This document shows positions 1 to 30,015 of a stretch of 64,000 nucleotides of DNA, piece after piece. A model generated the notes under the pieces. It saw only the letters and a list, made by a program, of their open reading frames with translations, ran no database searches and had not been told where the DNA came from. The stretch is from a virus. Taxonomy: Duplodnaviria > Caudoviricetes. Both the position numbers and the translations under genes were made by a program. Location: the IMG/VR virus record IMGVR_UViG_3300032254_000001, positions 256,001 to 320,000 of that record. One strand, given 5' to 3'. The number at the start of each line of letters is the position of its first letter. Within the stretch, counting starts at the first letter, position 1.

Positions 1-8
1 CTGCTTGA

Positions 9-404
9 TCAGATGTTAGTTCTTTCAAGTAGGTCTTCCTCTATTCTTTTCTGCTTATTCTCTTTACTAATATGATGAAGAAAGGCTGAGTGACTAACTT
101 GCACTAAAAATCCAAATGGGTTATTGCTTTTAGTTGAGTCAAAATGCTGATATGAAATTAACATTTGCATAACCGCAGCTTGAACTAAATCATCTGCGTA
201 CACTAGACTCTGATAATGTTTTCTGTGTAGTAGTCTATCCGCAAGTTCTATCATGTACTTGCCTAATGCTTGCGATACTTTGCCATCATTTTGTGCATAG
301 TCTATAGCAATAAGCAAATCAGAATTGTTGTTGATTGGACCGTAATAGCCCCACGGGTCAACTAACTTATCCCATACTGCACGTTGGTCTTTATTCAACA
401 GCAT
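9..404 (-). CDS. Truncated paralog of the gp55-like late sigma factor with an N-terminal AVWDKL tag
   Basis: DGKVSQALGKYMIELADR...KSNNPFGF...ISKENKQKRIEEDLLE aligns by eye with HGRTTNNLAMMYIKLCER...KSQNPFAY...LNIEKKMQNIRDDILE of the full gp55 at 28984-29961. Confidence 0.7.
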   Translation of the reverse strand: MLLNKDQRAVWDKLVDPWGYYGPINNNSDLLIAIDYAQNDGKVSQALGKYMIELADRLLHRKHYQSLVYADDLVQAAVMQMLISYQHFDSTKSNNPFGFLVQVSHSAFLHHISKENKQKRIEEDLLERTNI

Positions 405-684
405 TGAGTTTGTCCCATATAGCTTCTTTCTCTAAGCGATCATGGAACTCAATCATTGCTGCTTTTCTTTCTTTCTTAAAAAGATCAAGTGCTATCTTGT
501 GTGGGCAGTCCTCAGGGTACTCAGTTATGTTGTGTTCAGCTTCGCTTAAGCGACAAGAAACCCAAGTGTTGTCTGACTCGTAGTCCCTGCTGTGATCGCT
601 TATGTGTAATGTTTCATCCCACTCGTAGTAATTTTTACATTCAAGTATATCTCTGCACATACTGTCATAATGTATTCTAAACAT
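391..684 (-). CDS. Cys-containing hypothetical protein with C-terminal AIWDKL tag
   Basis: ATG at 684 preceded by GAGGA; shares NI..YPE.C.H and W.KL with 1765-2031. Confidence 0.7.
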   Translation of the reverse strand: MFRIHYDSMCRDILECKNYYEWDETLHISDHSRDYESDNTWVSCRLSEAEHNITEYPEDCPHKIALDLFKKERKAAMIEFHDRLEKEAIWDKLNAVE

Positions 685-937
685 CTTTCCTCTGCTCTGC
701 TGCAATTTCACTAATTAATATATCAGCTAGTTCTTGTTCAACATCTATTCCGTGTAGGGACTCTAGGTCTTTAGCAACGTCAACAGTCCAACTAGCACGT
801 AGCCTACGGGTCACAGGGCCAGTCTCCTTTAGGCGGTCCCAAACTTTTTCTTTCTCTCGTTGAATAGCTTCTTTCTGCTTCCGGATACCGTTGCGGATCT
901 TTCGTTGGTTCACTTGTATTGCTGTCTCTTTCATCAA
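677..937 (-). CDS. WxKL-tag mini-protein carrying a gp23 major capsid fragment
   Basis: KVWDRL followed by TRRLRASWT...HGIDVEQELADILISEIAAE; 21/39 identical to the MCP segment at about 8920-9040. Confidence 0.8.
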   Translation of the reverse strand: MMKETAIQVNQRKIRNGIRKQKEAIQREKEKVWDRLKETGPVTRRLRASWTVDVAKDLESLHGIDVEQELADILISEIAAEQRKDV

Positions 938-1166
938 ACTTCCATTCTCCTAGTATATGTTTATTAAATTCTGTCATATCTTTAGTCAGACTGTCAATGT
1001 ATGCGTCTACTAAAGACCAATCGATCCCATACTTCTGGGGGAGTTGTGTTACCCCAGATAATTTCTTCCATATGGTCTCTTCTTCTTTTTGCAGCCGCTC
1101 TCTTTCTTTTCGCCTCTGCTCTTTTCTTTTTCCGCGGGTCCTGAAACGTTTCCGTCTTGAAGTCAA
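804..1166 (-). CDS. Arg/Lys-rich WxKL-tag hypothetical protein
   Basis: TTG start with AGGAGG upstream; N-terminus MTSRRKRFRTRGKRK is paralogous to 994-1419; TIWKKL. Confidence 0.65.
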   Translation of the reverse strand: MTSRRKRFRTRGKRKEQRRKERERLQKEEETIWKKLSGVTQLPQKYGIDWSLVDAYIDSLTKDMTEFNKHILGEWKFDERDSNTSEPTKDPQRYPEAERSYSTRERKSLGPPKGDWPCDP

Positions 1167-1419
1167 AATGAAACCCTCCTACTGGTTCTATACCTGCTGT
1201 TTGTTCGCCCATTGGCTGTACACCAACTAAGTCGTCTGCAATCATTACAGGTGCTATGCGTCTCATTAACGGCATTAAAATAGCGCCAAGATCATCCCAA
1301 TCGTATTCAGGTGGTAGTGGCGGGCTAACATTTGTTAACTTGTTCCAAGTCTCTAACGACTCTTTCCTTAGTGCTTTACGCTTACCACGCTGCCTACGTC
1401 TGCGCCTGACACTAGTCAT
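994..1419 (-). CDS. WxKL-tag mini-protein carrying a gp23 fragment (Gol-peptide-equivalent region)
   Basis: ETWNKL followed by ILMPLMRRIAPVMIADDLVGVQPM; 13/24 identical to the MCP segment at about 9288-9360. Confidence 0.75.
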   Translation of the reverse strand: MTSVRRRRRQRGKRKALRKESLETWNKLTNVSPPLPPEYDWDDLGAILMPLMRRIAPVMIADDLVGVQPMGEQTAGIEPVGGFHFDFKTETFQDPRKKKRAEAKRKRAAAKRRRDHMEEIIWGNTTPPEVWDRLVFSRRIH

Positions 1420-1765
1420 CGTCGGTAATATCCTTAGGTTTAGGTTTCATTATTATAACATTATCATGCTCGTCGGACTTCTCGTATTTGTTCTTAATAC
1501 TATCTAACTTTTCTTCAAATGTGTCGCAGGCCCACTCGTTTAATTGATTGTATAAGTCAGCAGCACCAGGCGTCACAGTGTGTCTAAATGTTTCTGTTTT
1601 TGAATCATAATTGCTGATTATACGTTCTATTCGTATTACCCGCTTCCTGCGCCACCAAGACTTGAAATGAATAGTAAAAACATCATAAACCTTTGTGCCA
1701 ATCTTATGCTCCATTGTGTGCTCGAAGTATTCGATTTTATCAAAAAATTCTTTAGGTAGTATCAT
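1412..1765 (-). CDS. Hypothetical protein
   Basis: ORF tightly packed between its neighbours on the same strand. Confidence 0.65.
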   Translation of the reverse strand: MILPKEFFDKIEYFEHTMEHKIGTKVYDVFTIHFKSWWRRKRVIRIERIISNYDSKTETFRHTVTPGAADLYNQLNEWACDTFEEKLDSIKNKYEKSDEHDNVIIMKPKPKDITDDD

Positions 1766-2031
1766 TATAGGACCTGTATATGTACTGGATCACGTAAAAG
1801 TGATTTTACTGTTCTATGGGGTTGATTCAATTTCTTCCACATTATATCTTGTTGCTTTGCTTTATCTTTCGCAATGGTAATATCTTCAAGGTGCAAACAA
1901 CCTTCTGGATATTTAATAATGTTAATCGTCACACCCATTACAATACAGGAATGACATTTACCAACCTGCATATCAAACTCTCTGTGGTACTTGCATTCCT
2001 TTGATTTACAAAATTCATTAAAGTTATACAT
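1765..2031 (-). CDS. Cys-rich hypothetical protein with IMWKKL tag
   Basis: CxxxxC, CxxC and YPEGCLH; paralog of 391-684. Confidence 0.7.
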   Translation of the reverse strand: MYNFNEFCKSKECKYHREFDMQVGKCHSCIVMGVTINIIKYPEGCLHLEDITIAKDKAKQQDIMWKKLNQPHRTVKSLLRDPVHIQVL

Positions 2032-3055
2032 GCTCTACAACTACTTTTACATTTGGAAACGGTGTTATAAACTGCCCACATGCAGACTGAATTTCAACTC
2101 CGGTTGAAATTTGTATCTTTAAATTATTGTGAAACTTTGCAAACTGCACAATAATTTCCTTAAAGCGATCGCTTTCTTCCATTTCGTTAGCATCACATCT
2201 GTTATAGCGTAGTACTCTGAACTCGTAGTCTTCTAGATTCCACTTAGTGATAAAATCAAACAATGCTTGCACTTCTTCTTCGCTATCGTTAACACCATCC
2301 ATAAACATATGATGGAATATTAAATTATGTTTGTTGTTGTCTGCGTACTTTAACAGCTTCGGCATTGCTTCTTCCAATGGCATAGCTCCAGGAATAATTT
2401 GATCCCTAGTCTCTTGTACTGCACTGTGCAACGAATAAAACAATCTAAATGGACTGCGCTGTATGTAATTGCCCATTGATGATTGTGCTTCACTATGCAC
2501 AACAACCTTGTTATTTGGATTAGTTCCAAATGATTTTAGGTCTTCATTGAGCTCGTGAAATATGTCAATCCAATCATCGTTTCTAATTTTAGGTAGCACT
2601 GTTGAAAGATCAACACCATCTAAGCCTGCTGCGTAGTTGTTATCTGTTACGTAGTTTAACACATCGTTGGTTGCTCTGTACACCCCTGCTGGGTTAAGAA
2701 TTGCTTCGCCCATGCCCATCCAGCATACTTTCATGTATCTGCTTGCTATGCTTGCATCGTGTTGCACTGCATGATCAATTGCATCAATAAGATTTGATTG
2801 CACTGTAGTAATTGGCAGCTTCTTGTAAGGCATTTCTTTCATTGTTAAGTAACAGAAGTCACACTGCATCGGGCATCCGCCGCTAATCGATGCGAACACT
2901 GAATACTTATTTCTGTTAATAGGATTCATTTCCAGTACACCAGTTACTGGATTTCTAATTGTGTCGCAGCTTGAAACAGTTTTTATTGCAGTTTCAGACG
3001 TGTCGCTATGCACATACTTTGTTACTAGTCCGTCATCTGATTCAAAAACTTCCAT
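2024..3055 (-). CDS. RlmN/Cfr-family radical SAM protein
   Basis: SISGGCPMQCDFC cluster motif, MGMGE, SLHS and C-terminal SACGQ, all RlmN/Cfr hallmarks. Confidence 0.85.
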   Translation of the reverse strand: MEVFESDDGLVTKYVHSDTSETAIKTVSSCDTIRNPVTGVLEMNPINRNKYSVFASISGGCPMQCDFCYLTMKEMPYKKLPITTVQSNLIDAIDHAVQHDASIASRYMKVCWMGMGEAILNPAGVYRATNDVLNYVTDNNYAAGLDGVDLSTVLPKIRNDDWIDIFHELNEDLKSFGTNPNNKVVVHSEAQSSMGNYIQRSPFRLFYSLHSAVQETRDQIIPGAMPLEEAMPKLLKYADNNKHNLIFHHMFMDGVNDSEEEVQALFDFITKWNLEDYEFRVLRYNRCDANEMEESDRFKEIIVQFAKFHNNLKIQISTGVEIQSACGQFITPFPNVKVVVEHV

Positions 3056-3290
3056 TGGTATTCCTCTTCAATGAGTCCGGGTGAATTATTTCGTTACGAA
3101 CTCTGTTGTTTTCTCTTTCCCTTGCTGCTTCCATCTCTGCTAGTATCTCGTCTTGGATGCGACGAACTGCTTCTTCCATACGTCCTACCATGTGTCGTAG
3201 CATCTCTTCCCATTCCGTGTCATGGATAGAAGGTTCTTCCTGCAGACCGTTCTTTAAGCGATCCCAGACTTCTTCTTGCTCTGTGTTCAT
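3042..3290 (-). CDS. WxKL-tag helical hypothetical protein
   Basis: EQEEVWDRL at the N-terminus; overlaps its neighbours. Confidence 0.7.
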   Translation of the reverse strand: MNTEQEEVWDRLKNGLQEEPSIHDTEWEEMLRHMVGRMEEAVRRIQDEILAEMEAARERENNRVRNEIIHPDSLKRNTNGSF

Positions 3291-3472
3291 GCCGTTGTGT
3301 CCGATACTATTGTTATAGCCTTGTCAGCTCGAAGCACCTGTGTTGACCAATATATCGATCGATACATAAGTGGTTCAAATTTAACCTTAGGCTCTGGAAC
3401 ATGCTTAAGCTTTTCCCACACCAGTTCTTTATCACTGGGTTCTGCAGATGTTACTTTCTTGACTTTTGCCAC
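3287..3472 (-). CDS. WxKL-tag hypothetical protein
   Basis: DKELVWEKLKHVPEPK, nearly identical to the tag in 4112-4567. Confidence 0.7.
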   Translation of the reverse strand: MAKVKKVTSAEPSDKELVWEKLKHVPEPKVKFEPLMYRSIYWSTQVLRADKAITIVSDTTA

Positions 3473-3671
3473 TAAATTTTAATGCGAAAATTATCGCATC
3501 CTCCTTATACTCAAACCACCAACGTGTGTTAGTGTAATGGTGATAAAAACATCCACCATCTTGTTGTTCGACACACCACTTGTGAGCTTCTTTAATACAG
3601 TCACGACATGGTGGTGGAACAACAAACCATAATTCATTACGATGTTCCTTAGGTGGATTACACCACTTCAC
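3432..3671 (-). CDS. Small protein of the WC...[FW]xFExExDAxxFxL family
   Basis: WCVEQQDGG...WWFEYKEDAIIFALKF. Confidence 0.7.
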   Translation of the reverse strand: MKWCNPPKEHRNELWFVVPPPCRDCIKEAHKWCVEQQDGGCFYHHYTNTRWWFEYKEDAIIFALKFSGKSQESNICRTQ

Positions 3672-3919
3672 TCATCTTTACCTACTACCACATACTCGAC
3701 GCTAGATACGCCGTCACCTAAATCTTTGTGTACTAATTTAGTTTCCACCTTACCTCCTCGCATATCAGCGAACAGTTGCGATGCTTTTTTAAGTTCTTCT
3801 TCTGTGTTCTCTACTTCTTTCCAATTCGAAGCCTTGCTCAGCTTTTCCCACATTAATTCCTTATCGTCATCTTCTGTAGTCTTGCCAAGAAGTATTCTTT
3901 TAAAACGTTCTAAGTTCAT
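3668..3919 (-). CDS. WxKL-tag hypothetical protein
   Basis: DKELMWEKL; ATGA overlaps with neighbours. Confidence 0.7.
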   Translation of the reverse strand: MNLERFKRILLGKTTEDDDKELMWEKLSKASNWKEVENTEEELKKASQLFADMRGGKVETKLVHKDLGDGVSSVEYVVVGKDE

Positions 3920-4143
3920 TTGTCGATTGTACTCTCAATATCGAAATACATTGTTTTACCAGCTCCGCGTCGTGCTGCTATTACAACCAATTCACCTTTG
4001 CCAACACCACCACACAATGCTCTACCTAATTGCTGTTGGTACCATGTTAGGCCGTTGCCATTAAATGGTGGTACATACTCTGTGGATAACTTTTCCCACA
4101 TTAGTTCCTGCTCAGCGGCTTTTGAGGATTTTGATTGTGACAT
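3916..4143 (-). CDS. WxKL-tag mini-protein carrying an isolated Walker A (DnaB-like) fragment
   Basis: EQELMWEKL followed by GGVGKGELVVIAARRGAGKT, in only 75 aa. Confidence 0.7.
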   Translation of the reverse strand: MSQSKSSKAAEQELMWEKLSTEYVPPFNGNGLTWYQQQLGRALCGGVGKGELVVIAARRGAGKTMYFDIESTIDK

Positions 4144-4567
4144 TATTTGGATCCACCTCTTCTTTAGAAATACTTAGTATAGTGTCCATCATGCTCGGAT
4201 ATAATGAACTAATGTCATTATCAAACGTGCTACCCTTAGGCTGTGGAACATGTTTAAGCTTTTCCCAAACTTCTGCCTTTTCCTCTTCGATCTTCTGTAA
4301 TAAAATTTTAGCTTTAACACGGGTACCAAACACAGGACTTTTTGCAGCTTCCTGCAAGTCTGCTATCTCCATGCGGATCCGGTTGTCATGCTCCTCATCA
4401 GTATCAGTAATCATCCTAAGTCTAGCTTTTGCTCGTAGCCTAATGCCCATTGAATCATCCTTACTAAGGATTTTAAGATATTCCGGGCCATTGTTCATTA
4501 GCTCTATCTTCTCAGCTTCAGACATTGCCATTATTCTAATTTGGTCAAACAGATCAACTTCACTCAT
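4112..4567 (-). CDS. WxKL-tag protein carrying a family-B DNA polymerase motif A-like fragment
   Basis: EKAEVWEKLKHVPQPK followed by DISSLYPSMM. Confidence 0.65.
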   Translation of the reverse strand: MSEVDLFDQIRIMAMSEAEKIELMNNGPEYLKILSKDDSMGIRLRAKARLRMITDTDEEHDNRIRMEIADLQEAAKSPVFGTRVKAKILLQKIEEEKAEVWEKLKHVPQPKGSTFDNDISSLYPSMMDTILSISKEEVDPNNVTIKILKSR

Positions 4568-4797
4568 TTAAATTTTAATGCAAACAATGTTGCATCCTCT
4601 TCGTTTTCAAAATACCAATATGTTTCTCTAAATTCCACGTCCGCTTTATTTTCTTTATACCTGCGATAATATTGCCCTGATGAATTATGTCCTGTGCACC
4701 ATGATCCTTCCGCAGTATACGATCTAGATGCATGTCTAACTAATGTCACTTTATTCCACGGGTGGCCGTTAACATCGCCTATATCTTTATATTCCAC
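4564..4797 (-). CDS. Small protein of the FxFExExDAxxFxL family
   Basis: WCTG...YWYFENEEDATLFALKF. Confidence 0.7.
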   Translation of the reverse strand: MEYKDIGDVNGHPWNKVTLVRHASRSYTAEGSWCTGHNSSGQYYRRYKENKADVEFRETYWYFENEEDATLFALKFK

Positions 4798-4805
4798 AGT
4801 ACACC

Positions 4806-5225
4806 TTATTCATCAAACTTCTCATTTTTCAATTTATAAAATGTTTCAACGCTTTCTTCTGTGAACGGAACAAAGGTACTAGCCAATGCATCTTTGCCAG
4901 AAGTAAAATAAAATATCCAACCGCCCGGTACACGTTCAGCACAGGTATCGTCGTGTATATCTAAGCGATCATAATGTGGCATGGTATACAGTTGCCTGCG
5001 ATTCTTAGCATAGACCACTTCCCTTACTGCGGCTTCTTTAGCAGCCTCATCCATTTCTGCCCTGTGTTTCGCCATTATTTTGTCAATGCGATCACGGCGT
5101 TCTAATTCTTCACGTAGGCCTTTTGCCTTAGCTGCGTCTTTAGCTTCTTGCTCTTTCTTTTCTTTTAGTAGCTGCCGGTCTGCTTTACTTTTCCACATCG
5201 TGGTACTCCTCGGGAGGAGCTGCAA
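4806..5225 (-). CDS. Hypothetical protein
   Basis: Charged helical N-terminus and RVPGGWIFY C-terminal domain; start uncertain. Confidence 0.6.
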   Translation of the reverse strand: MQLLPRSTTMWKSKADRQLLKEKKEQEAKDAAKAKGLREELERRDRIDKIMAKHRAEMDEAAKEAAVREVVYAKNRRQLYTMPHYDRLDIHDDTCAERVPGGWIFYFTSGKDALASTFVPFTEESVETFYKLKNEKFDE

Positions 5226-5508
5226 TTGCTTCTAAGTCGTATACCACTCGTTTAATGTACTGGAACTTTGATTCCGGATCATCGCATAATGCCATCCATG
5301 CTAATTCCTTATTAAACTTGAATTTAAGTGTGTTAGCTACGCCATTGGTATAGCGATTGATACGGCTAAGTTCAGCTTCGTGGTCACGTTTAACCCGAAG
5401 GAACTGCTTTTCGCGGTAGTTAATATGCTGGGCTTGGCCTTTAGCCTTGTCTTCCAGATCCTTTATTTGCTGTTTAAGATCCTTAATTATATCGCGTTTT
5501 GATGCCAT
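5185..5508 (-). CDS. Coiled-coil hypothetical protein
   Basis: First ORF after the 5541-5569 promoter; ATG at 5508 (track start 5517). Confidence 0.65.
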   Translation of the reverse strand: MASKRDIIKDLKQQIKDLEDKAKGQAQHINYREKQFLRVKRDHEAELSRINRYTNGVANTLKFKFNKELAWMALCDDPESKFQYIKRVVYDLEAIAAPPEEYHDVEK

Positions 5509-5540
5509 AACTACCACTGAGGTTAACGAATTGTGTAGTA

Positions 5541-5569
5541 ATTATAGCAAGTTTTGGAGGGATGGTCAA
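5541..5569 (-). promoter_or_regulatory. sigma70-type early promoter
   Basis: TTGACC-17 nt-TATAAT with extended TG. Confidence 0.8.
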
Positions 5570-5808
5570 TCAGTTTTGGTGTCATCGAGTGTAATGTTAA
5601 CGCTTAAATAGGGGAATTCGGTGTCATCTACGTACTCAACATCGTACGGCTTTTCAATTGTGCAATCGGTACTTAAAAAGGCATCTACTGCCGTCTGTTC
5701 CTCTATGGATAATACCTCATCCTGGAAAAGCCATATATCCATAACCGATTCGAATCCACCGTGCTTAATAAGAAGCAGTGTCATTAGGTGTTCCTGTTCT
5801 GGAGTCAT
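5566..5808 (-). CDS. LILK[YH]G-family small protein
   Basis: LLLIKHGG...DIWL. Confidence 0.65.
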   Translation of the reverse strand: MTPEQEHLMTLLLIKHGGFESVMDIWLFQDEVLSIEEQTAVDAFLSTDCTIEKPYDVEYVDDTEFPYLSVNITLDDTKTD

Positions 5809-5855
5809 AAGTCAGACCTTTATGGGCTTCTGTGTTTGACGCTTTACAAGCCGTT

Positions 5856-5884
5856 ATGTTAACACACTATTTTGGTGTTGTCAA
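5856..5884 (-). promoter_or_regulatory. sigma70-type promoter
   Basis: TTGACA-17 nt-TAACAT with extended TG. Confidence 0.65.
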
Positions 5885-6033
5885 TGGCTGTTCTTTATAT
5901 GCACGTCAAAACCTTCTTTTTCATGCTCGTAATATACAGGAGTATTGTTCAAAATCTTTGCTATTGAATGTGCAAACTCTCTGTCTTCTGTCATTAGTCG
6001 TACGAATGTTGCTTTAAGCTCTTCGTCACTCAT
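5881..6033 (-). CDS. 50-aa hypothetical protein (not in ORF track)
   Basis: MSDEELKATFVRLMTEDREF...KNSH*; fills the gap between two same-strand genes and overlaps the upstream stop. Confidence 0.55.
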   Translation of the reverse strand: MSDEELKATFVRLMTEDREFAHSIAKILNNTPVYYEHEKEGFDVHIKNSH

Positions 6034-6247
6034 CTTCATTATCTGTATCCTTTGGATTATCGTATAGTTTGTTAAACTCTTTCTTTACATCTAAAACAAG
6101 ATTTGGTAATATTTTTATTGCATGTTCACCTAGTACTTCCTTCTGGGCATCACTGAACTGTTCTTTATCGTACAACCATATACAGAATGCGTTCTCTATA
6201 CTGCCGTACTTCAAAATTAAAAATGTTTTAACATCATCTTCACTCAT
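6026..6247 (-). CDS. LILKYG-family small protein
   Basis: FLILKYGSIENAFCIWL. Confidence 0.7.
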   Translation of the reverse strand: MSEDDVKTFLILKYGSIENAFCIWLYDKEQFSDAQKEVLGEHAIKILPNLVLDVKKEFNKLYDNPKDTDNEDE

Positions 6248-6447
6248 TTGCGTCTGGTCTCTGCAAAGAATATATTAATAGCATCGTGCAAGTGAGCGGG
6301 CATTTTATCGTGTGTATTGATCCACATATGGAATGCTTTGTCCAAATTGCCGTATTTTAATATTAAATATGATTCTATATTATCCATAGTTATCGGTCCC
6401 GGGTGATACGCTGTTCGCGTTACTAGCGTAACACACTCGTCTACCAA
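6244..6447 (-). CDS. LILKYG-family small protein
   Basis: YLILKYGNLDKAFHMW. Confidence 0.7.
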   Translation of the reverse strand: MVDECVTLVTRTAYHPGPITMDNIESYLILKYGNLDKAFHMWINTHDKMPAHLHDAINIFFAETRRK

Positions 6448-6465
6448 AAGTCAACCTCAATCTGC

Positions 6466-6678
6466 TCATTTTAAGTCATCTTTTAGTGTAACACTTACTG
6501 GATATTTAATACCATCTTTGGTATGCTCTAATATCATGTGTGCTAGTTCGGATATAGTAGGATCTGGGTCGTTCTTAAATACATCAAGATGCTTACCATA
6601 ACGTACCATTATGAACTTTTCTTCAAACGGTAAGGAGTAGTACTTGATGTGATCAAATACATTTGATTCATTTGCCAT
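6466..6678 (-). CDS. Hypothetical protein (distant LILKYG-like, FIMVRYG)
   Basis: Same-strand packed ORF. Confidence 0.6.
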   Translation of the reverse strand: MANESNVFDHIKYYSLPFEEKFIMVRYGKHLDVFKNDPDPTISELAHMILEHTKDGIKYPVSVTLKDDLK

Positions 6679-6847
6679 TATCTTTATCTCTTTGATCTAA
6701 ATAATCGTTAAGTGCTTTTACTGCTTCCGTTAAGTTGTCCTTATTTCTATCAGTATTGTATTTCTGGATTATATCCAATTTTTGTTCCGTTGTTAGGTAT
6801 TCCTTATTAAGGTTTTCCCATGTTTCTTCTTCAGGTGTTTTAGCCAT
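6668..6847 (-). CDS. 59-aa protein with a WxKL-like tag (EEETWENL); not in ORF track
   Basis: ATG 6847 to TGA 6668, MAKTPEEETWENLNKEYLTTEQKLDIIQKY...; first gene after the 6886-6914 promoter. Confidence 0.7.
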   Translation of the reverse strand: MAKTPEEETWENLNKEYLTTEQKLDIIQKYNTDRNKDNLTEAVKALNDYLDQRDKDNGK

Positions 6848-6885
6848 AATTCGTGCTTCTATCTTGAGGGCGCTTTACAGCACTT

Positions 6886-6914
6886 AGTATAACAATTTAA
6901 AATGCGTTTGTCAA
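6886..6914 (-). promoter_or_regulatory. sigma70-type early promoter (leftward)
   Basis: TTGACA-17 nt-TATACT with extended TG. Confidence 0.85.
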
Positions 6915-6928
6915 CCTTATCGTAATAT

Positions 6929-6958
6929 TTGACTTATACCCATTTTGCATGTTACACT
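6929..6958 (+). promoter_or_regulatory. sigma70-type promoter (rightward, divergent)
   Basis: TTGACT-18 nt-TACACT with extended TG. Confidence 0.65.
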
Positions 6959-6962
6959 CATC

Positions 6963-7035
6963 CTACGAAAGCGTAGAGCAGTTACACGCTTTTGGCCCAC
7001 TAGGGCCATCGAGGACGAAGTACTCGAGTAACTGC
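6963..7035 (+). ncRNA. Candidate structured 5' leader RNA
   Basis: CTACG/CGTAG hairpin; GCAGTTAC/GTAACTGC 8-bp stem enclosing GGCCC/GGGCC and TCGAG/CTCGA hairpins. Confidence 0.5.
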
Positions 7036-7053
7036 GAAGAATAGGAACTTATT

Positions 7054-7284
7054 ATGAATGTAGTACCCGGAGCATCTATAACAGCTATTAAAGATTCGTA
7101 CTTTATGGTTGAAGCACGTACTCCTTTTGAGCGTGATGGCGAATTATATCCATGGTGTAAGAATCACGATAGCGAAGGATATTTCAATTATGCTAATCGC
7201 TACTCTAGTGGCGGTAACGTCCGACCACAGTTTTGGTTTGAGTTAGAAGCTGATGCTATGTTGTTTAAGTTGAAATTCGCATGA
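7054..7284 (+). CDS. Small protein of the FxFExExDAxxFxL family
   Basis: WCKNHDSEGYF...FWFELEADAMLFKLKF. Confidence 0.75.
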   Translation: MNVVPGASITAIKDSYFMVEARTPFERDGELYPWCKNHDSEGYFNYANRYSSGGNVRPQFWFELEADAMLFKLKFA

Positions 7285-7628
7285 GACTTATAATAGCTGG
7301 AAGCAGACACTTAACACTTGATGTAGAAGGCATACAGGCCTTTATTAACTATTTAGGTATTACAGATATAACCGAAGTAGTGTGTGGCATGGCGCCTGGT
7401 ATTGATGCTGCTGGAAAATTATGGGCAGAATCTAATAACATTCCAGTTGAGCCGTTTCCTGCAGAGTGGGAGACGTACGGCAAAGCTGCTGGGCATATAC
7501 GCAATAAGCAAATGGCAGACTACGGTGATGAACTACTAGTAATTTGGAACGGTAAGTCTCCGGGTTCTCGTAATATGAAGACCACAATGGAAAAATTGGG
7601 CAAAAAGGTACACGAAGGCACATTCTAA
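7281..7628 (+). CDS. SLOG-superfamily (YspA/DUF2493-like) nucleotide-binding protein
   Basis: MRLIIAGSR, VVCGMAPGID, FPAEW..YGKAAG.IRN.QMA, W.GKSPG. Confidence 0.85.
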   Translation: MRLIIAGSRHLTLDVEGIQAFINYLGITDITEVVCGMAPGIDAAGKLWAESNNIPVEPFPAEWETYGKAAGHIRNKQMADYGDELLVIWNGKSPGSRNMKTTMEKLGKKVHEGTF

Positions 7629-7810
7629 TGACAAACGATTACCCATACAAAGTTAGATTTAAATGGCGTTACGGTGAAATGCTAAAGGATCTTTCTGCAT
7701 GGTGTAATGAGAATTGCACCGGCGAATATCAGTATCAATACACTGCTTCAGTGTTTTGGTTTAAAGAGTCTAAGGATGCAATGATGTTTAAACTGGCTAA
7801 CAACTTATGA
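7628..7810 (+). CDS. Small protein of the FxFExExDAxxFxL family
   Basis: WCNENCTGEY...FWFKESKDAMMFKL. Confidence 0.75.
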   Translation: MTNDYPYKVRFKWRYGEMLKDLSAWCNENCTGEYQYQYTASVFWFKESKDAMMFKLANNL

Positions 7811-7992
7811 TACTAAGCATTCCAATCAAAGATTACTGCATTGGTTGTCGTATGAAGTCTGTCAGACCGCAGTTTAAACCTAGGCAAGACGACTTCAATT
7901 ATCTGTACTTTAGTATTAACGATGTTGTGTACTTTGAATGGAGTAAGGAATTTGAGCAAGCTTTACTATGGGAGGCACTGCAACGTGATTGA
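7807..7992 (+). CDS. Hypothetical protein, paralog of 7985-8167
   Basis: PRQDDF...FEWSKEFEQALLWEAL. Confidence 0.65.
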   Translation: MILSIPIKDYCIGCRMKSVRPQFKPRQDDFNYLYFSINDVVYFEWSKEFEQALLWEALQRD

Positions 7993-8167
7993 ATACCAGC
8001 GACTAGACTATCCGTGGGAATGGTACGTACTTACTGAGAGGGATTTTATCTGTCGCCCTGATGACTTTAGGCGAATTATATTTAGAGTTGATGGTGCAGA
8101 ATTTATCGAGTGGAATGCAGAATTTGAACATGCTCTTTTAATAGAAAGGCTTAGCCGGTCTGCTTGA
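7985..8167 (+). CDS. Hypothetical protein, paralog of 7807-7992
   Basis: GTG at 7985 with GGGAGG upstream; RPDDF...IEWNAEFEHALLIERL. Confidence 0.65.
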   Translation: MIEYQRLDYPWEWYVLTERDFICRPDDFRRIIFRVDGAEFIEWNAEFEHALLIERLSRSA

Positions 8168-8192
8168 CAAACTAAAATTTACATGTTATGCT
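8164..8192 (+). promoter_or_regulatory. sigma70-type promoter with no downstream ORF
   Basis: TTGACA-17 nt-TATGCT with extended TG. Confidence 0.7.
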
Positions 8193-8280
8193 TAGTTCTG
8201 TCCAAGCAAGCGAGGTCAGTCGAACACGTTCGAGTCACCCGCAACAACAGAACCTACTTATCATGGATTACAACTCAAAA

Positions 8281-8306
8281 AAAAGCACTCTGTAAAGAGT
8301 GCTTTT
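8281..8306. terminator. Bidirectional intrinsic terminator
   Basis: AAAAGCACTCT-GTAA-AGAGTGCTTTT with A/T tails on both sides, between convergent units. Confidence 0.85.
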
Positions 8307-8346
8307 TAATTTTACTTCAAACTATCTAAGATAGTACAGTAACAAC

Positions 8347-9537
8347 TTAGCTAAAGCTTAAATTGCTGACTGCGACTTCCCCTAAATAATCTCCAGCATT
8401 ACCGAAAGATGATGCAGTATTCGTAAGCTCAATATAACCATAACGTGTCATAAAGCTTACAACTGGCTCAAATGTACTTGGATCAAGTACAACACCTGAA
8501 CTCATTAAAGGAACGTATGGGCAGTAGAACGCTGGTGCGTCTGCTTCGCTTGAACCTTTATAACCAACAAGTACTGGAGTAGTGTCGTTAGCATAGCTAT
8601 CAACGTAAACTTTCATTGCTGAGTTAAGAGTACCAACAAACTTAGTGTTTGTAGGAGCTTCAAATGTACCTTCAGTGGTACGTGCAAATGCAGAGGTAGT
8701 AGCTGACTGTAGTACAGTTAAAGAAGCTGGTGAAACAACTGCATAGTTACCAGCGCCACGACGTGTACGTGTAGCGATAAGGTTAGCTGTACGGTTGATA
8801 AGAACTGCTAATGCAGCATGTTCATCACCTACGAATGTAGCAGTACCTGAAACAAGTGACTGATCGTATGTGAATTCTGTGCTTGCTAATGAACGTAAAG
8901 ATAAAAGAATCTCTTGGTCAATTTCAGCAGTAATTTCTTGTGCTAAAGCAGCCATGATTTCAGCTTCAACATCAATGCCGTGCATTGACTGAGCATCTTG
9001 AGCAGCTTCAAAAGTCCAACGTGCTTGTAACTTACGTGTCTTAGCTTCAACAGCTTGCTTTAAGATCTGAACGGAAATGTTACGACCGCCTTCGCCTTCT
9101 AAGTTTGCTGTCTGTGCTGCACGGTAGTCAGCTTGTGTAGCGCCAACACCAGCTGAGTATGCTTGCGCAATCTTGAATGGTGATAGTGCTTCTTCGCCTG
9201 CTGCTGTACTAGTACTAGCTGCACTTGAATCAGTCATAGTAGAACCGTAACGTACACGAAGTGTATGAATCTGGCTTACAGGACCTGACATTGGCTGTAC
9301 ACCTACAAGTTCATTTGCAATGACTGTAGGCATAACACGTCGAATAACTGGTAAAATAACACGGTTTAATGTTGCAACGTTACCAGCGGCAGTAGCGCCA
9401 CTTGATGCAGATTCTGCTAAGTGGTTACGAGTGTTTTCCAAAATTACGCTCATTGTAGAACGTTTGGTACCGTCTAGACCTTCAAGCAATGCTTCTTTGG
9501 TCTCACCCCAACGGTTTTCTAATAGTGCTTGTGACAT
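8347..9537 (-). CDS. gp23: Major capsid protein (T4 gp23-like)
   Basis: LVGVQPM, TRKLQARWT, HGIDVEAE, FYCPYVPL and TRYG motifs. Confidence 0.97.
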   Translation of the reverse strand: MSQALLENRWGETKEALLEGLDGTKRSTMSVILENTRNHLAESASSGATAAGNVATLNRVILPVIRRVMPTVIANELVGVQPMSGPVSQIHTLRVRYGSTMTDSSAASTSTAAGEEALSPFKIAQAYSAGVGATQADYRAAQTANLEGEGGRNISVQILKQAVEAKTRKLQARWTFEAAQDAQSMHGIDVEAEIMAALAQEITAEIDQEILLSLRSLASTEFTYDQSLVSGTATFVGDEHAALAVLINRTANLIATRTRRGAGNYAVVSPASLTVLQSATTSAFARTTEGTFEAPTNTKFVGTLNSAMKVYVDSYANDTTPVLVGYKGSSEADAPAFYCPYVPLMSSGVVLDPSTFEPVVSFMTRYGYIELTNTASSFGNAGDYLGEVAVSNLSFS

Positions 9538-9558
9538 TATAATCTCCTATTTAACACT

Positions 9559-10659
9559 TTATTTTAAGCCAGCTAAAGTTTTAATATCAACGATATTGCT
9601 ATCATCGTTAGTATTTACTTTAGCTGTTTTATCACCAGTTACTTCTTTACGGCTTTCTGTTACTACGCGCTTCTTAGAAGGTGTAGCGTCATTGGCTTTA
9701 TTAGCAAGTACCGCTGGCAGATATTTCTCGAAAGCATTCGATAATCGACTTGTTTGAACGCTTTCTAATAAGTTTTGCATGATCTCACGCTTATCTTCGT
9801 TTAAAGGTGCTAACAAATCTGTCATAGCCTCATCACGTTGATTGCCTTCTTTTATCATACGAATTTCTTTGTTTTTACTTTCTGTAAGTGCTTCTAACTT
9901 AGTTGCTTTAGTAGCAGACTCTTTCAACTCTGTTTCCTTAGCTTCTAAACTATCTTTCAACTTACGGATTTCTGCATTTTCGTTTAAGTGTGTTGATGTA
10001 AACTCACTTGAAAAAGCTTCGAAAATACGTCGACCAAAGCTGTTCTCGCGAGCAGATTTGATGTCTTCTTGTAATGTTGTTAACTCTGTTGATAGTGTTG
10101 ACTTAACATGGTTCTGGACTTTAGCAGCACTTTCTTTAACGAAACGTGTTTTAAGTGCTTCTAGTTGTGTACGTGCTTCTGCAACAAGCTTAACCTTCGT
10201 TTCAACGACGTCTTGCTTATCTTTTGCAAATTCACGAACTTCTTTTGCTAACTGTTTAGCAACAAAAGATTCAACTGCTTCTAATCCTTCACTTTGGATT
10301 TGGCGGTCCTTACGTAGTTCTTTAATTTCTTCAGCTAACTTAGCAGTCATGAAATTATTAAACTTAGCACCGTTTTCAGCCATCTTCTTATTGAACTTAA
10401 CTCGATCTTCTGCTAATGCAGCTTTCTCTTCCTTAAATTCACTAATTTCAGACTGTAAACCTTCAGTAACCATTTTATCAAGAGCTTCGACCATTACTTT
10501 CTTGTCGTGATCGTAACGTTGTGCGAATTCCTCACGTAACTCAGTACGCAATTCTTCACGTGCTTCGTTTAACTTTGAATCCCAGGCTTCCATAATCTCT
10601 GAGCTGGTATCTTCGTTAATCACGTTACTGTCAAGCAATTGTTTGATTGCATCTAGCAT
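9559..10659 (-). CDS. Prohead core scaffold protein (gp22-like)
   Basis: Long acidic coiled coil between the protease and the MCP. Confidence 0.8.
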   Translation of the reverse strand: MLDAIKQLLDSNVINEDTSSEIMEAWDSKLNEAREELRTELREEFAQRYDHDKKVMVEALDKMVTEGLQSEISEFKEEKAALAEDRVKFNKKMAENGAKFNNFMTAKLAEEIKELRKDRQIQSEGLEAVESFVAKQLAKEVREFAKDKQDVVETKVKLVAEARTQLEALKTRFVKESAAKVQNHVKSTLSTELTTLQEDIKSARENSFGRRIFEAFSSEFTSTHLNENAEIRKLKDSLEAKETELKESATKATKLEALTESKNKEIRMIKEGNQRDEAMTDLLAPLNEDKREIMQNLLESVQTSRLSNAFEKYLPAVLANKANDATPSKKRVVTESRKEVTGDKTAKVNTNDDSNIVDIKTLAGLK

Positions 10660-10670
10660 TTTGTGGTCTC

Positions 10671-11303
10671 CTAAATTTTAAGATCTTTGATTAGGGCAAT
10701 TACGCCTTCTTTCAAATATCTTTGTACACGTTTGTTCTCGCTAGCTTCTTCTGCAATACCTAACAACTTCAATCCGCCTTTCATATTCATGATGCCTTCA
10801 TATATAGCTGTTGGGTACGCTTCAGGCGCACTAGGTTGAGCAACGATATCGACTGTGATTATCTCAAAGTCTGATACGTGTCCTGTAGCTTCGTTAACAT
10901 TACCGCTTCCTCTAGATGAAACGCCTAGCTTAACGCCTGCGCCTAACATCGTTTCAATGACTTTACCCATTGGAGTTGGAAGTATTTTTAACTTGCCATA
11001 ACCGTTAGCGCCTTCCATCCACATTTCTGTGATCATGTGCGACACGCGGTCTAAATTTATTTTTAAATCATCTGGGTGATCTATTTCGCCTAAAACGGAA
11101 TAGCCACCTGTGATTTGTTCGTTAAGTGTGCTAACGGCTGTGTTAATTTCTCTCACTGGATATATACGCTGATTAGCATTTCTCTGATCACCTTGGATGC
11201 AGATGCCTTTCATGTATAAATCTTTTCCGCCTTTACCGTCAGCAGCTTCTTCAAGCTGGACTTTAGCTGCGTCAAAGTTTAAATATTCTTGTAAGATACT
11301 CAT
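10671..11303 (-). CDS. gp21: Prohead protease (gp21)
   Basis: NANQRIYP, LGEIDHP, GVSSRGSG, D.VAQPSAP motifs. Confidence 0.95.
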   Translation of the reverse strand: MSILQEYLNFDAAKVQLEEAADGKGGKDLYMKGICIQGDQRNANQRIYPVREINTAVSTLNEQITGGYSVLGEIDHPDDLKINLDRVSHMITEMWMEGANGYGKLKILPTPMGKVIETMLGAGVKLGVSSRGSGNVNEATGHVSDFEIITVDIVAQPSAPEAYPTAIYEGIMNMKGGLKLLGIAEEASENKRVQRYLKEGVIALIKDLKI

Positions 11304-11312
11304 AATCTAACC

Positions 11313-12080
11313 TTAAGAACCGCTTAAGCTTTTCTTGTTAACACCAGCATCTTCACCCTTCTTCTTAGGTTCAGCTACTTTGCTTTCGTTTGGTTTTGTT
11401 GTACCGTCGCCTGGCTTAACTGCTGGGGTAGCATCGCCTTTAGCTTCTGTACCTGTTGGTGTGATAGGTTTAGCAACTGCGCCTTTCTTACCGCTGTTGT
11501 CAGCGTTAACAGACTTCTTGTTTACTGTGCCTTCTTCTGTTGAGTTTGAAATGCCTTTAGAAACTTTAGATAAGCTTACTGCTTCATTGAAGCGGCCTTC
11601 CATTTCTTCTTCAGCGCCCATTTCTGGTTCCATACCCATTTCTGGTTCCATACCCATTTCAGGCTCCATGCCCATTTCATCGCCAGCTTCGTCGCCCATA
11701 ACAGCATCAAATTCTGACATTAAAGCGTCTAACTGATCTTCAAGATCAACAACGCGATCTTCTAAATCGGCTTCTTCTTCGCCTTCCATGCCGCCCATGT
11801 CATCGCCCATTTCTGGTTCCATGCCCATGTCATCGCCCATTTCTGGCTCGGCACCCATTTCTGGTTCCATGCCCATGTCGTCTTCGCGCATGCCTTCTTC
11901 ATCTGAAGAGATATCGTTAATAAGTTCGTCAGCTGCATCGCCACCTAACTCATTTTCTCTATCCATTAATGATTCATAGATATCGCGAGACTTTTCAACT
12001 ACGATTTCATGAAAAAGTTCTTCGGCTTTGCCGTCTTCTTCATTGATAACGTATTCAATAAGTTGTTCAAATTTATTCAT
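11313..12080 (-). CDS. Acidic low-complexity prohead core/internal protein
   Basis: Position in the head module; MG[MA]EPE repeats. Confidence 0.6.
   Translation of the reverse strand: MNKFEQLIEYVINEEDGKAEELFHEIVVEKSRDIYESLMDRENELGGDAADELINDISSDEEGMREDDMGMEPEMGAEPEMGDDMGMEPEMGDDMGGMEGEEEADLEDRVVDLEDQLDALMSEFDAVMGDEAGDEMGMEPEMGMEPEMGMEPEMGAEEEMEGRFNEAVSLSKVSKGISNSTEEGTVNKKSVNADNSGKKGAVAKPITPTGTEAKGDATPAVKPGDGTTKPNESKVAEPKKKGEDAGVNKKSLSGS
11613..11880 (-). repeat. Coding tandem repeats (MG[MA]EPE)n in two blocks
   Basis: Repeated cccatttctggttccat-like units at about 11613-11680 and 11785-11880. Confidence 0.85.
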
Positions 12081-12449: not shown

Positions 12450-12457
12450 TATTTATG
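12450..12457 (-). promoter_or_regulatory. gp55-type late promoter CATAAATA
   Basis: T4 late-promoter-like octamer just upstream of ATG 12444. Confidence 0.7.
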
Positions 12458-28983: not shown

Positions 28984-29961
28984 TTATGAATCGTCAGTTT
29001 TCTTTTTGTTGGGGTTACACAAGTTATAATCGTATGCAAAGTCTTCTTTCTTGCCTTCGTTTGCAAACTGTCTAGTCCAACTAGGTGTTAGTCCGTTAGC
29101 TTCGAGAATATCATCACGTATATTTTGCATCTTCTTCTCAATGTTTAGTACACGAGTAAAGCTGTTAGTCACTGCGGCAGTGTAGTACGCAAATGGGTTC
29201 TGTGATTTAAGTTCATTAAACTGTAGCCCAATCTGTGATAGCTGCAATAACGCTTGTCCTTGCATCTCATCGTTATACGTATACCCACGCCAGTTACTAC
29301 GTGTGCCATAACGTTCGCATAGCTTTATGTACATCATAGCTAAGTTATTTGTAGTTCTGCCATGATCTTTGGTAAACTTGCCTTCTTCGATATCGCCCTT
29401 CCAGTGTGATTTACCTACTATTTCTGCAGATAGCTCACCATCTGTGTCTGTTACACGGTAATGGAAGAATGGAGGGAAGTTAACACGCATTGGTATCATT
29501 TCAACATCTGGATCAGTTGGTGATAATGATTGATCATCGTCAGTTTCGATTAGTTCGTCAAATACTGCGTTTGCTTTTGCTTGTTTCGCTGCTTTAGCTA
29601 ATGCCGCTTTTGATTTCTTCTTAGGCACTAGCGGAATGTGCTCATTGGTCATAACACGGAATACAACATCATGCAGTTCAACGTCTGCTACATCTGTCGG
29701 TATTTCTAACTTAGTGAGTCGTGTTGCTCGTGCTTGTCTAGCTAAATCAACGACGGGTACGTCTTTGAATGTAGGGTTACCGTTTTCGTCTTTGCCGACA
29801 TCAACGTTCTGTGTTCCCCAAATTTCTTCTAGTGATTCTACTATGAAGTCTTGCTGATTGTCCTCAACTTTATCTTTAAAGGAACAATATGATATTTTGC
29901 TTAGGTGTATTTCTTTAAGCATATCCTTATTATTTAAGTAATTCTTTTTTCTCTTAGCCAT
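28984..29961 (-). CDS. gp55: Late transcription sigma factor (gp55-like)
   Basis: N-terminal KNYLNNKDMLKEI; NWRGYTYNDEM and NPFAYYT; ATG 29961 with GAGGA upstream. Confidence 0.9.
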   Translation of the reverse strand: MAKRKKNYLNNKDMLKEIHLSKISYCSFKDKVEDNQQDFIVESLEEIWGTQNVDVGKDENGNPTFKDVPVVDLARQARATRLTKLEIPTDVADVELHDVVFRVMTNEHIPLVPKKKSKAALAKAAKQAKANAVFDELIETDDDQSLSPTDPDVEMIPMRVNFPPFFHYRVTDTDGELSAEIVGKSHWKGDIEEGKFTKDHGRTTNNLAMMYIKLCERYGTRSNWRGYTYNDEMQGQALLQLSQIGLQFNELKSQNPFAYYTAAVTNSFTRVLNIEKKMQNIRDDILEANGLTPSWTRQFANEGKKEDFAYDYNLCNPNKKKTDDS

Positions 29962-29987
29962 AAAATCCTCGTTGCTGTAGTGCATAC

Positions 29988-30015
29988 AGTATAACATGAT
30001 GTGCGTATTTGTCAA
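29988..30015 (-). promoter_or_regulatory. sigma70-type promoter for the gp55 operon
   Basis: TTGACA-16 nt-TATACT with extended TG. Confidence 0.6.

Follow-up and report, generated by a model that had tools for sequence, protein, structure and literature searches.

Why would a giant phage that carries an intact major capsid protein (MCP) gene also encode, some 8 kb away, a second and detached copy of one short segment of that protein? We addressed this question with a window of 64,000 nucleotides, positions 256,001-320,000 of the 344,483-bp IMG/VR record IMGVR_UViG_3300032254_000001, which has direct terminal repeats. This uncultured jumbo myovirus comes from a microbial-mat metagenome, and its capsid protein is closest to those of Sinorhizobium phage Phosso (67%), Vibrio phage 2.275.O (66%), PA5oct (63%) and Asteriusvirus (62%). 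An earlier note, made from the sequence alone, had reported at 1207-1281 an isolated capsid segment matching the Gol region of T4 gp23. It suggested that a free-standing Gol-like peptide could be an EF-Tu-binding modulator or a decoy for Lit-like sensors.

The segment is present at exactly these coordinates, and the note's observation is confirmed, although the reading strand is minus. Positions 1207-1281 encode residues 47-71 (ILMPLMRRIAPVMIADDLVGVQPMG) of a 141-aa open reading frame, here called gene A. The features needed to follow the analysis are listed below, all on the minus strand.

994..1419 (-), gene A, a 141-aa protein of pI 10.7 made up of an Arg-rich leader with a peptide tag, a linker, the Gol-homologous window, a loop and a Lys/Arg-rich C-terminal helix
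1333..1419 (-), the leader of A, residues 1-29 (MTSVRRRRRQRGKRKALRKESLETWNKLT), a predicted Arg-rich helix ending in the tag (T-W-N-K-L)
1207..1281 (-), the Gol-homologous window of A, residues 47-71, a copy of the MCP N-arm segment (own MCP 60-83, T4 gp23 94-118)
1045..1140 (-), the predicted C-terminal Lys/Arg-rich helix of A, residues 94-125; the same DNA encodes the Arg-rich leader of gene B in the +1 frame
804..1166 (-), gene B, a paralogue of A in the +1 frame that overlaps A by 173 nt
677..937 (-), gene C, 85-86 aa, again in the +1 frame, with a second capsid segment at 680-811
1412..1765 (-), a conserved 117-aa upstream neighbour (MILPKEFFDKIEYFEH...)
9..4797 (-), an array of co-oriented small genes sharing the peptide tag
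5541..6914 (-), two sigma-70-type promoter-like sites upstream of the array
8347..9537 (-), the resident MCP gene (396 aa, Pfam Gp23 5e-96), with the parent window at 9289..9360 (MCP residues 60-83)

BLASTP of A against the resident MCP aligned residues 47-70 with MCP 60-83, with 13/24 identical residues, 22/24 positives and an E-value of 1e-8. Pfam Gp23 (PF07068) matched residues 46-77 on profile positions 6-37 of 376 at 26.6 bits (26.5 bits in a genome-wide scan), above the gathering cut-off of 24.4, and the PHROG major head protein gave 7.5e-6. A profile of the A family aligned to T4 gp23 residues 89-124 (TQIGPAVMGMVRRAIPNLIAFDICGVQPMNSPTGQV) in PDB chain 6uzc_a with an E-value of 2.8e-7. 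By our count on this alignment 12 of 24 residues are identical to T4, and the T4 Gol sequence given in the note is correct. The protein meets the homology criterion for Gol and contains a capsid-derived segment, but at 141 aa it lacks the complete HK97-type fold of a capsid protein (N-arm, E-loop, spine helix, P and A domains; about 400-520 aa). It covers under 10% of this fold, with no A domain, P-domain sheet or spine helix, and cannot be a capsid subunit.

The note also pointed to 15 identical nucleotides shared by the two copies. This identity (GGTGTACAGCCAATG, at 1210-1224 and 9289-9303) is real, and 0 of 100 shuffles gave two copies. However, it reflects only the same codon choice for G-V-Q-P-M, as orthologues use GTT/GTA, GGT/GGC, GTA/GTG/ATT, CAG/CAA and CCA/CCG in the VGVQPM stretch, and pS to the MCP is 0.56. 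It is not evidence of recent copying, and we rejected a recent copy of the resident gene.

We next asked whether A is a gene or a relic. A word-indexed search of 5.8 billion proteins, restricted to short proteins, first gave five orthologues, and a profile search extended this to about 26 proteins of the same build, 93-144 aa in length. In 24 aligned members two islands are conserved: the leader (residues 1-29), which ends in T-W-x-x-L and has a mean fraction of the commonest residue of 0.79, and the Gol window (residues 47-70) at 0.70. The linker is 0.31, the loop 0.45 and the tail, which is basic in all orthologues, 0.44. In seven sequences R5, R6, R8, R9, Q10, R11, G12, K13, R14, K15, R18, L22, T24, W25 and L28 of the leader are invariant; in the Gol window R53, P57, A61, V65, G66, Q68, P69 and M70 are invariant. 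Across six orthologues with DNA, the 24 core codons showed pS of 0.46-0.92 and pN of 0.16-0.43, so that synonymous sites are near saturation while the peptide is held. The ATG of A overlaps the stop of the upstream gene by 8 nt, and an AAGGA lies 11 nt upstream. The source contig has about 400x depth with no variants or indels over 600-4600. From these data we conclude that A is a genuine gene under protein-level selection.

An AF2 model built with the family alignment was of low confidence and non-globular (mean pLDDT 67, pTM 0.27). Helices were predicted at residues 4-29 (pLDDT 86-93), 44-64, which covers much of the Gol window, 94-125 and 128-140, with residues 65-93 disordered.

Contrary to the word "isolated" in the note, which is misleading, the Gol window sits between two Arg/Lys-rich helices in a conserved three-part protein, and A is followed by genes with further capsid pieces. 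Gene B starts inside A at TTG 1166 with a perfect AGGAGG 8 nt upstream. It begins MTSRRKRFRTRGKRK... (with E-T-I-W-K-K-L as its tag), comparable to MTSVRRRRRQRGKRK of A, and the A/B alignment has an E-value of 2.6e-4. The payload of B (...EFNKHILGEWKFDER) resembles a large-terminase motif, and profile-profile alignment chose the expected stretch of the resident TerL (259-302), but with an E-value of 0.89 this resemblance is not significant. Gene C starts inside B. Following its leader, MKETAIQVNQRKIRNGIRKQ...EKVWDRLK, residues 43-86 copy MCP 167-210 (21/44 identical, E 1e-12; Pfam Gp23 46.3 bits). A PDB profile alignment places this segment at T4 gp23 262-299, which is the return strand of the E-loop-equivalent linker plus the start of the spine helix (domain names from PMC9546572). 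C has eight short orthologues. The A-B-C order with the same two +1 overlaps was found in five independent metagenome assemblies of relatives (L005 and L010-L013). With the 400x depth this rules out assembly frameshifts as the source of the three frames. Two further relatives (L008 and L014) carry arrays but lack A and B. The 117-aa neighbour precedes A, or C where A and B are absent, in all relatives. Neither this neighbour nor the leader had a match in 50,697 deposited phage genomes.

A genome-wide Pfam scan found exactly four Gp23 matches: the true gene, C, A and a third small gene just outside the window (genome 255,535-255,732; spine helix; E 1.5e-3). A relative also has a tagged 75-aa protein carrying the capsid C-terminal block ...FYCPYVP (Pfam 7.8e-5).

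These genes belong to a larger array. The motif [VIM]-W-[DEKN]-[KR]-L, usually preceded by E-x (in short, E-x-V-W-(D/E)-(K/R)-L), occurs 12 times on the minus strand within 360-4270, compared to three chance hits in the other 60 kb, and two more copies lie just upstream of the window. Genome-wide, 14 copies lie within 4.7 kb (255.7-260.3 kb). With T also allowed (E-x-[VIMT]-W-[DEKN]-[KR]-L), the tag of A is L-E-T-W-N-K-L at residues 22-28. The tag is conserved as peptide and not as DNA, as its codons vary synonymously. Repeats in the region are only 65-75% alike apart from one tag pair that is 90% identical over 40 nt, and we rejected a DNA-level repeat, recombination site or translational bypass as the source of the W-x-K-L motif.

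Payloads homologous to a conserved block of a core phage protein have statistical support for A, C, the third MCP piece and two other array members. ORF 3916..4143 carries the DnaB-type H1/Walker A block (PHROG 4.8e-5, Pfam 8.9e-3). ORF 9..404 encodes a 131-aa mini version of the gp55-like late sigma factor (Sigma70_r2 1e-6, and 1e-8 to the resident gene at 28984..30015). A primase-like zinc-finger piece is weak (1.7e-3). A PolB motif A payload in 4112..4567 matches 8 of the 10 motif residues of the resident polymerase by eye but has no Pfam or PHROG support. Recognisable payloads may also be biased towards conserved blocks.

The profile search for the Gol window returned 176 short proteins. 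Together with the family members found earlier, at least 119 of these match the resident MCP. Fifteen are truncated genuine capsid N-termini. The other 104 carry only this window: 26 are of the A type, about 45 have the Gol window within the first dozen residues followed by an unrelated domain ending in a ...F.(V/I)S.E.L..W..LRW-like motif, and 33 have other architectures, including one (P0041) with two windows. The C-terminal ..LRW domains match no Pfam or PHROG family. In the 104 non-capsid proteins, similarity starts at MCP residue 56-60 (median) and ends at about 90-97 (median). The note had proposed that scattered fragment boundaries in homologues would count against its reading; the boundaries are not scattered. 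This result also argues against the note's own caveat, that this is simply the easiest piece of gp23 to recognise, as the whole story. As the search was seeded with this window, it does not indicate how common other detached windows are.

Three of these proteins were checked and are internal small genes of 332-kb, 411-kb and 128-kb contigs. The unrelated 411-kb contig (L115, an NCBI MAG record) has its own array with a different tag, (V/A)(F/Y)D(R/K)W(C/N)WETG..ED(K/R), and adjacent genes there carry the same three capsid windows: spine 173-208, the Gol window and FYCPFLPL 336-352. In cultured phages a Gol-core query found 2396 places in 2392 records, and second copies are practically absent. 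Two "hypothetical" hits in cultured jumbo phages and a hit in RsoM2USA are ordinary or frameshifted MCP genes. True capsid genes keep the 24-aa core almost invariant (23.3/24 identical on average over 80 IMG/VR loci), whereas cores of the A family have diverged (14.1/24) but keep R, P, IA and VGVQPM.

To obtain an indication of timing we searched for promoter-like sequences. Two sigma-70-type matches with an extended -10 TG lie upstream of the array, at 6914-6886 (TTGACA-17-TATACT) and 5569-5541 (TTGACC-17-TATAAT), each matching 11 of 12 positions. These are consensus matches only and are not enriched over shuffles. The motif CATAAATA, which we read as a late-promoter candidate by analogy with TATAAATA of T4, precedes many structural genes but is absent from 1-12,000. 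These results suggest early expression but do not show it: the array lies downstream of the late capsid operon on the same strand, so late read-through is possible, and a search for RNA-seq runs found none that holds the region.

What might such a protein do? In T4 the 29-aa Gol peptide, active on its own, binds EF-Tu domains II-III, 13 of 20 core residues matter, the complex is the substrate of the Lit protease, and the region is the most conserved in gp23 (PMC3014915). The first half of the Gol window, up to L106, is disordered inside the prohead, probably on the scaffold core, and is later externalised into inter-capsomer contacts (PMC9546572). Many bacterial sensors read core phage proteins: Lit and CapRel read short MCP motifs, and Avs families sense MCP, polymerase and primase-helicase (bioRxiv 10.64898/2026.01.04.697583). 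Fragments of essential proteins inhibit their parents by titration (Savinov et al. 2022, PMC9245647), although those are laboratory constructs against the cell's own proteins, whereas here a natural, conserved, tagged set is encoded by a virus.

Our analysis establishes the gene, its selection, its two conserved blocks (the Arg-rich leader, predicted to be helical, with the tag shared by about 14 neighbouring mini-genes, and the 24-40-aa copy of the capsid N-arm), the overlapping genes that follow it, and the recurrence of the detached window on other carriers in other giant-phage contigs. Binding, early expression and function are inferred. The explanation we tentatively favour is that the Gol window is a portable binding module that keeps the surface of nascent, unassembled capsid protein. 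Made from host-type (early) promoters before the capsid protein itself, it would occupy whatever reads that stretch, either a host sensor of short capsid motifs (Lit- or CapRel-like) or EF-Tu, and would compete with or divert that interaction. In this view the basic leader and tag would supply a shared second function for all array members, such as anchoring, blocking or stabilising. The selective retention of just this window, its portability and its place in an apparently early array beside other core-protein pieces are the grounds for this preference. Several observations weigh against it. As a free Gol peptide switches Lit on in T4, a mimic could harm the phage unless the flanks change the outcome. 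The much faster evolution of the Gol window here than in true MCPs could mean relaxed rather than retained function. Fusion to many different passenger domains fits a targeting tag as well as a decoy.

The interpretation in the note is partly supported: a free-standing copy of exactly the Gol-homologous window exists and homologues conserve just this window, but EF-Tu binding and any Lit effect rest only on homology to T4, where the free peptide activates Lit rather than blocking it, so that a simple decoy for Lit is not the obvious outcome.

Among the alternatives, which we consider unlikely, two are about equally placed. In the first, the N-arm copy is a capsid-targeting tag that docks on the scaffold core or on neighbouring capsid subunits, and the basic protein is packed inside the head to bind DNA or be injected. 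T4 internal proteins IPI-III are likewise small, basic and carry a short N-terminal address peptide, but there is no sequence similarity to A. The location of the gp23 N-terminal region inside the prohead shell, the basicity of A, B and C (pI 10.7, 9.6 and 9.1), the extreme N-terminal position of the Gol window before a passenger domain in about 45 other proteins, and the proximity of the array to the capsid operon are consistent with this reading. However, no late-type promoter motif lies within 12 kb, early-type matches lie upstream, no T4-like L/I-x-E processing site is evident by eye, and array members carrying DnaB or sigma pieces are not explained.

In the second, fragments of interface elements (capsid N-arm, E-loop and spine; helicase P-loop; sigma region 2) would act as dominant-negative poisons of a co-infecting T4-like relative. 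All recognised payloads come from multi-subunit machines, a related phage contig carrying the tag is present in the same sample at lower depth, and the detached cores differ from the phage's own MCP core. On the other hand, the phage's own proteins carry the same motifs and would be poisoned too, there is no evidence of self-resistance, and the near-invariance of the MCP core across relatives would make discrimination between self and rival hard.

Slightly less likely is an EF-Tu binder that modulates translation, which develops the first option of the note: the Gol window would dock on EF-Tu domains II-III, as T4 Gol does, and the Arg-rich helices would contact tRNA or rRNA, altering or protecting elongation during take-over. 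The Gol window is homologous to the only segment with a demonstrated partner, and almost every position of the motif is kept in detached copies, in line with the 13 of 20 Gol core residues that matter. The Arg-rich leader, followed by Trp, resembles in general character the RNA-binding arginine-rich motifs of lambda N and HK022 Nun, which recognise a boxB hairpin; no repeated hairpin and no Rfam family was found in 1-8000, and the other array tags are acidic rather than basic. Against this reading, only 12/24 residues are identical to T4 Gol, and the other capsid windows and payloads are not accounted for.

A non-functional scar, left by recombination between tag-bearing cassettes in a hyperplastic mosaic region with a recent tag duplication and variable gene content, is very unlikely because orthologues keep the ORF, its length and exactly the MCP-conserved residues despite saturated synonymous change, the same window recurs on unrelated carriers, and there is no MCP sequence between the pieces.

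Other readings were also rejected. A split or intron-interrupted capsid gene is excluded by the intact resident MCP. Co-folding of A (38-95) with C (36-86), carried out to examine a split mini-capsid, gave a score of 0.01, which is no evidence either way. For a DGR template the nucleotide identity is too low; we saw no reverse transcriptase or endonuclease among the array ORFs read, and the fragments span both sides of the motifs, so that an intein or homing-endonuclease flank was also dropped. A radical-SAM/RiPP leader role for the tag had no support, as the enzyme at 2024..3055 is only weakly Radical_SAM and the payloads are not core-peptide-like. Atlas searches gave no usable hit for A and only sub-threshold leads for the protein P0121.

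A more far-reaching possibility, which is speculative and unlikely on present evidence although not excluded, is that giant phages encode early-expressed libraries of tagged peptide mimics of their own core proteins (the capsid Gol window, spine helix and C-terminal strand, helicase P-loop and sigma core) that pre-load or blind host surveillance of Lit-, CapRel- or Avs-type, including EF-Tu-dependent sensors, with the shared tag turning a would-be trigger into a blocker. The Gol-window protein would then be the first natural antagonist of capsid-motif sensing. The Gol stretch is one of the few viral peptides known to be read directly by a bacterial defence system, and its excision, selection and mounting on several carriers, often beside equally short pieces of other core proteins, suggest that it has a transferable activity of its own. 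If that activity is mimicry, these arrays would be a new class of viral counter-measure or inter-viral weapon, and a natural catalogue of the peptide motifs that matter in phage-host recognition; if it is capsid targeting, the Gol window would be a new packaging address for giant phages. Either way, a single small gene makes the old question of why gp23 binds EF-Tu testable.

We found no paper describing detached Gol windows or tagged fragment arrays, and none containing GVQPM. Nor did we find a description in Pfam or PHROGs, where the only trace is a 128-position PHROG (phrog_12830) labelled "major head protein", whose last 30 or so profile positions match the Gol window.

We noted in passing several sequence features around the gene for the basic protein carrying the detached capsid window (gene A), as well as in more distant parts of the same DNA. 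The features considered here are as follows.

677-1419 (-), three consecutive overlapping genes, A, B and C
9-404 (-), a tagged 131-aa mini-sigma
2024-3055 (-), a 343-aa radical-SAM-like protein
3382-3421 and 4231-4270, two tag-coding stretches
3432-3671 (-) and 4564-4797 (-), two small ORFs lacking the Gol window
28984-30015 (-), the resident 343-aa gp55-like late sigma
39462-52583 (+), a single ORF of 4373 aa

Genes A, B and C overlap by 173 and 134 nt, with each gene in the +1 frame of the one before. The same purine-rich DNA encodes the basic tail of A and the Arg-rich leader of B, and this arrangement is conserved in five independent assemblies. Although the T-poor sequence explains why the frames stay open, it does not explain why the overlap is kept. 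Within the mini-gene array the two tag-coding stretches (…EVWEKLKHVP.PK) are 90% identical over 40 nt, pointing to a recent duplication or conversion inside the array. The 343-aa radical-SAM-like protein, which contains CPMQCDFC and matches Pfam Radical_SAM with a score of 25 bits, below the cut-off, sits in the middle of the array. The mini-sigma carries the tag and matches only region 2 and the core of the resident gp55-like late sigma (24% over 96 aa, E 1e-8). It is conserved in the relative L014.

An independent array of mini-genes was found on contig L115, an NCBI MAG contig of 411 kb, at positions 2258-5497 (+). Its members share a different tag, (V/A)(F/Y)D(R/K)W(C/N)WETG..ED(K/R). Three adjacent members carry the capsid spine window, the Gol window (with the tag inserted between the window and the E-loop strand) and the C-terminal FYCPFLPL block. 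The core of this tag, V-F-D-R-W, resembles the V-W-D-R-L of the phage under study.

About 45 metagenomic proteins, within the set numbered P0043 to P0133, join an N-terminal Gol window to an unrelated domain ending ...F.VS.E.L.W..LRW. No Pfam or PHROG family matches this domain. The two small ORFs at 3432-3671 and 4564-4797 end in a similar W.FE.(E/K)EDA..FALKF motif, but lack the Gol window. In addition, one small metagenomic protein (P0041, 139 aa) carries two Gol-like windows in tandem (…LLPLIRNVLPNIIAHDICGVQPM… and …NLIPYDTVGVQPMPGPISEIMTMRYSYG).

The sequence CATAAATA lies 20-40 nt upstream of several structural genes on both strands, with occurrences at positions 12450, 14686, 17029, 20269, 30049, 30076, 36013, 53377 and 63296. 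By comparison with T4 TATAAATA, this is a likely late-promoter motif. None occurs in 1-12,000. The single 4373-aa ORF lies among tail or fibre genes.
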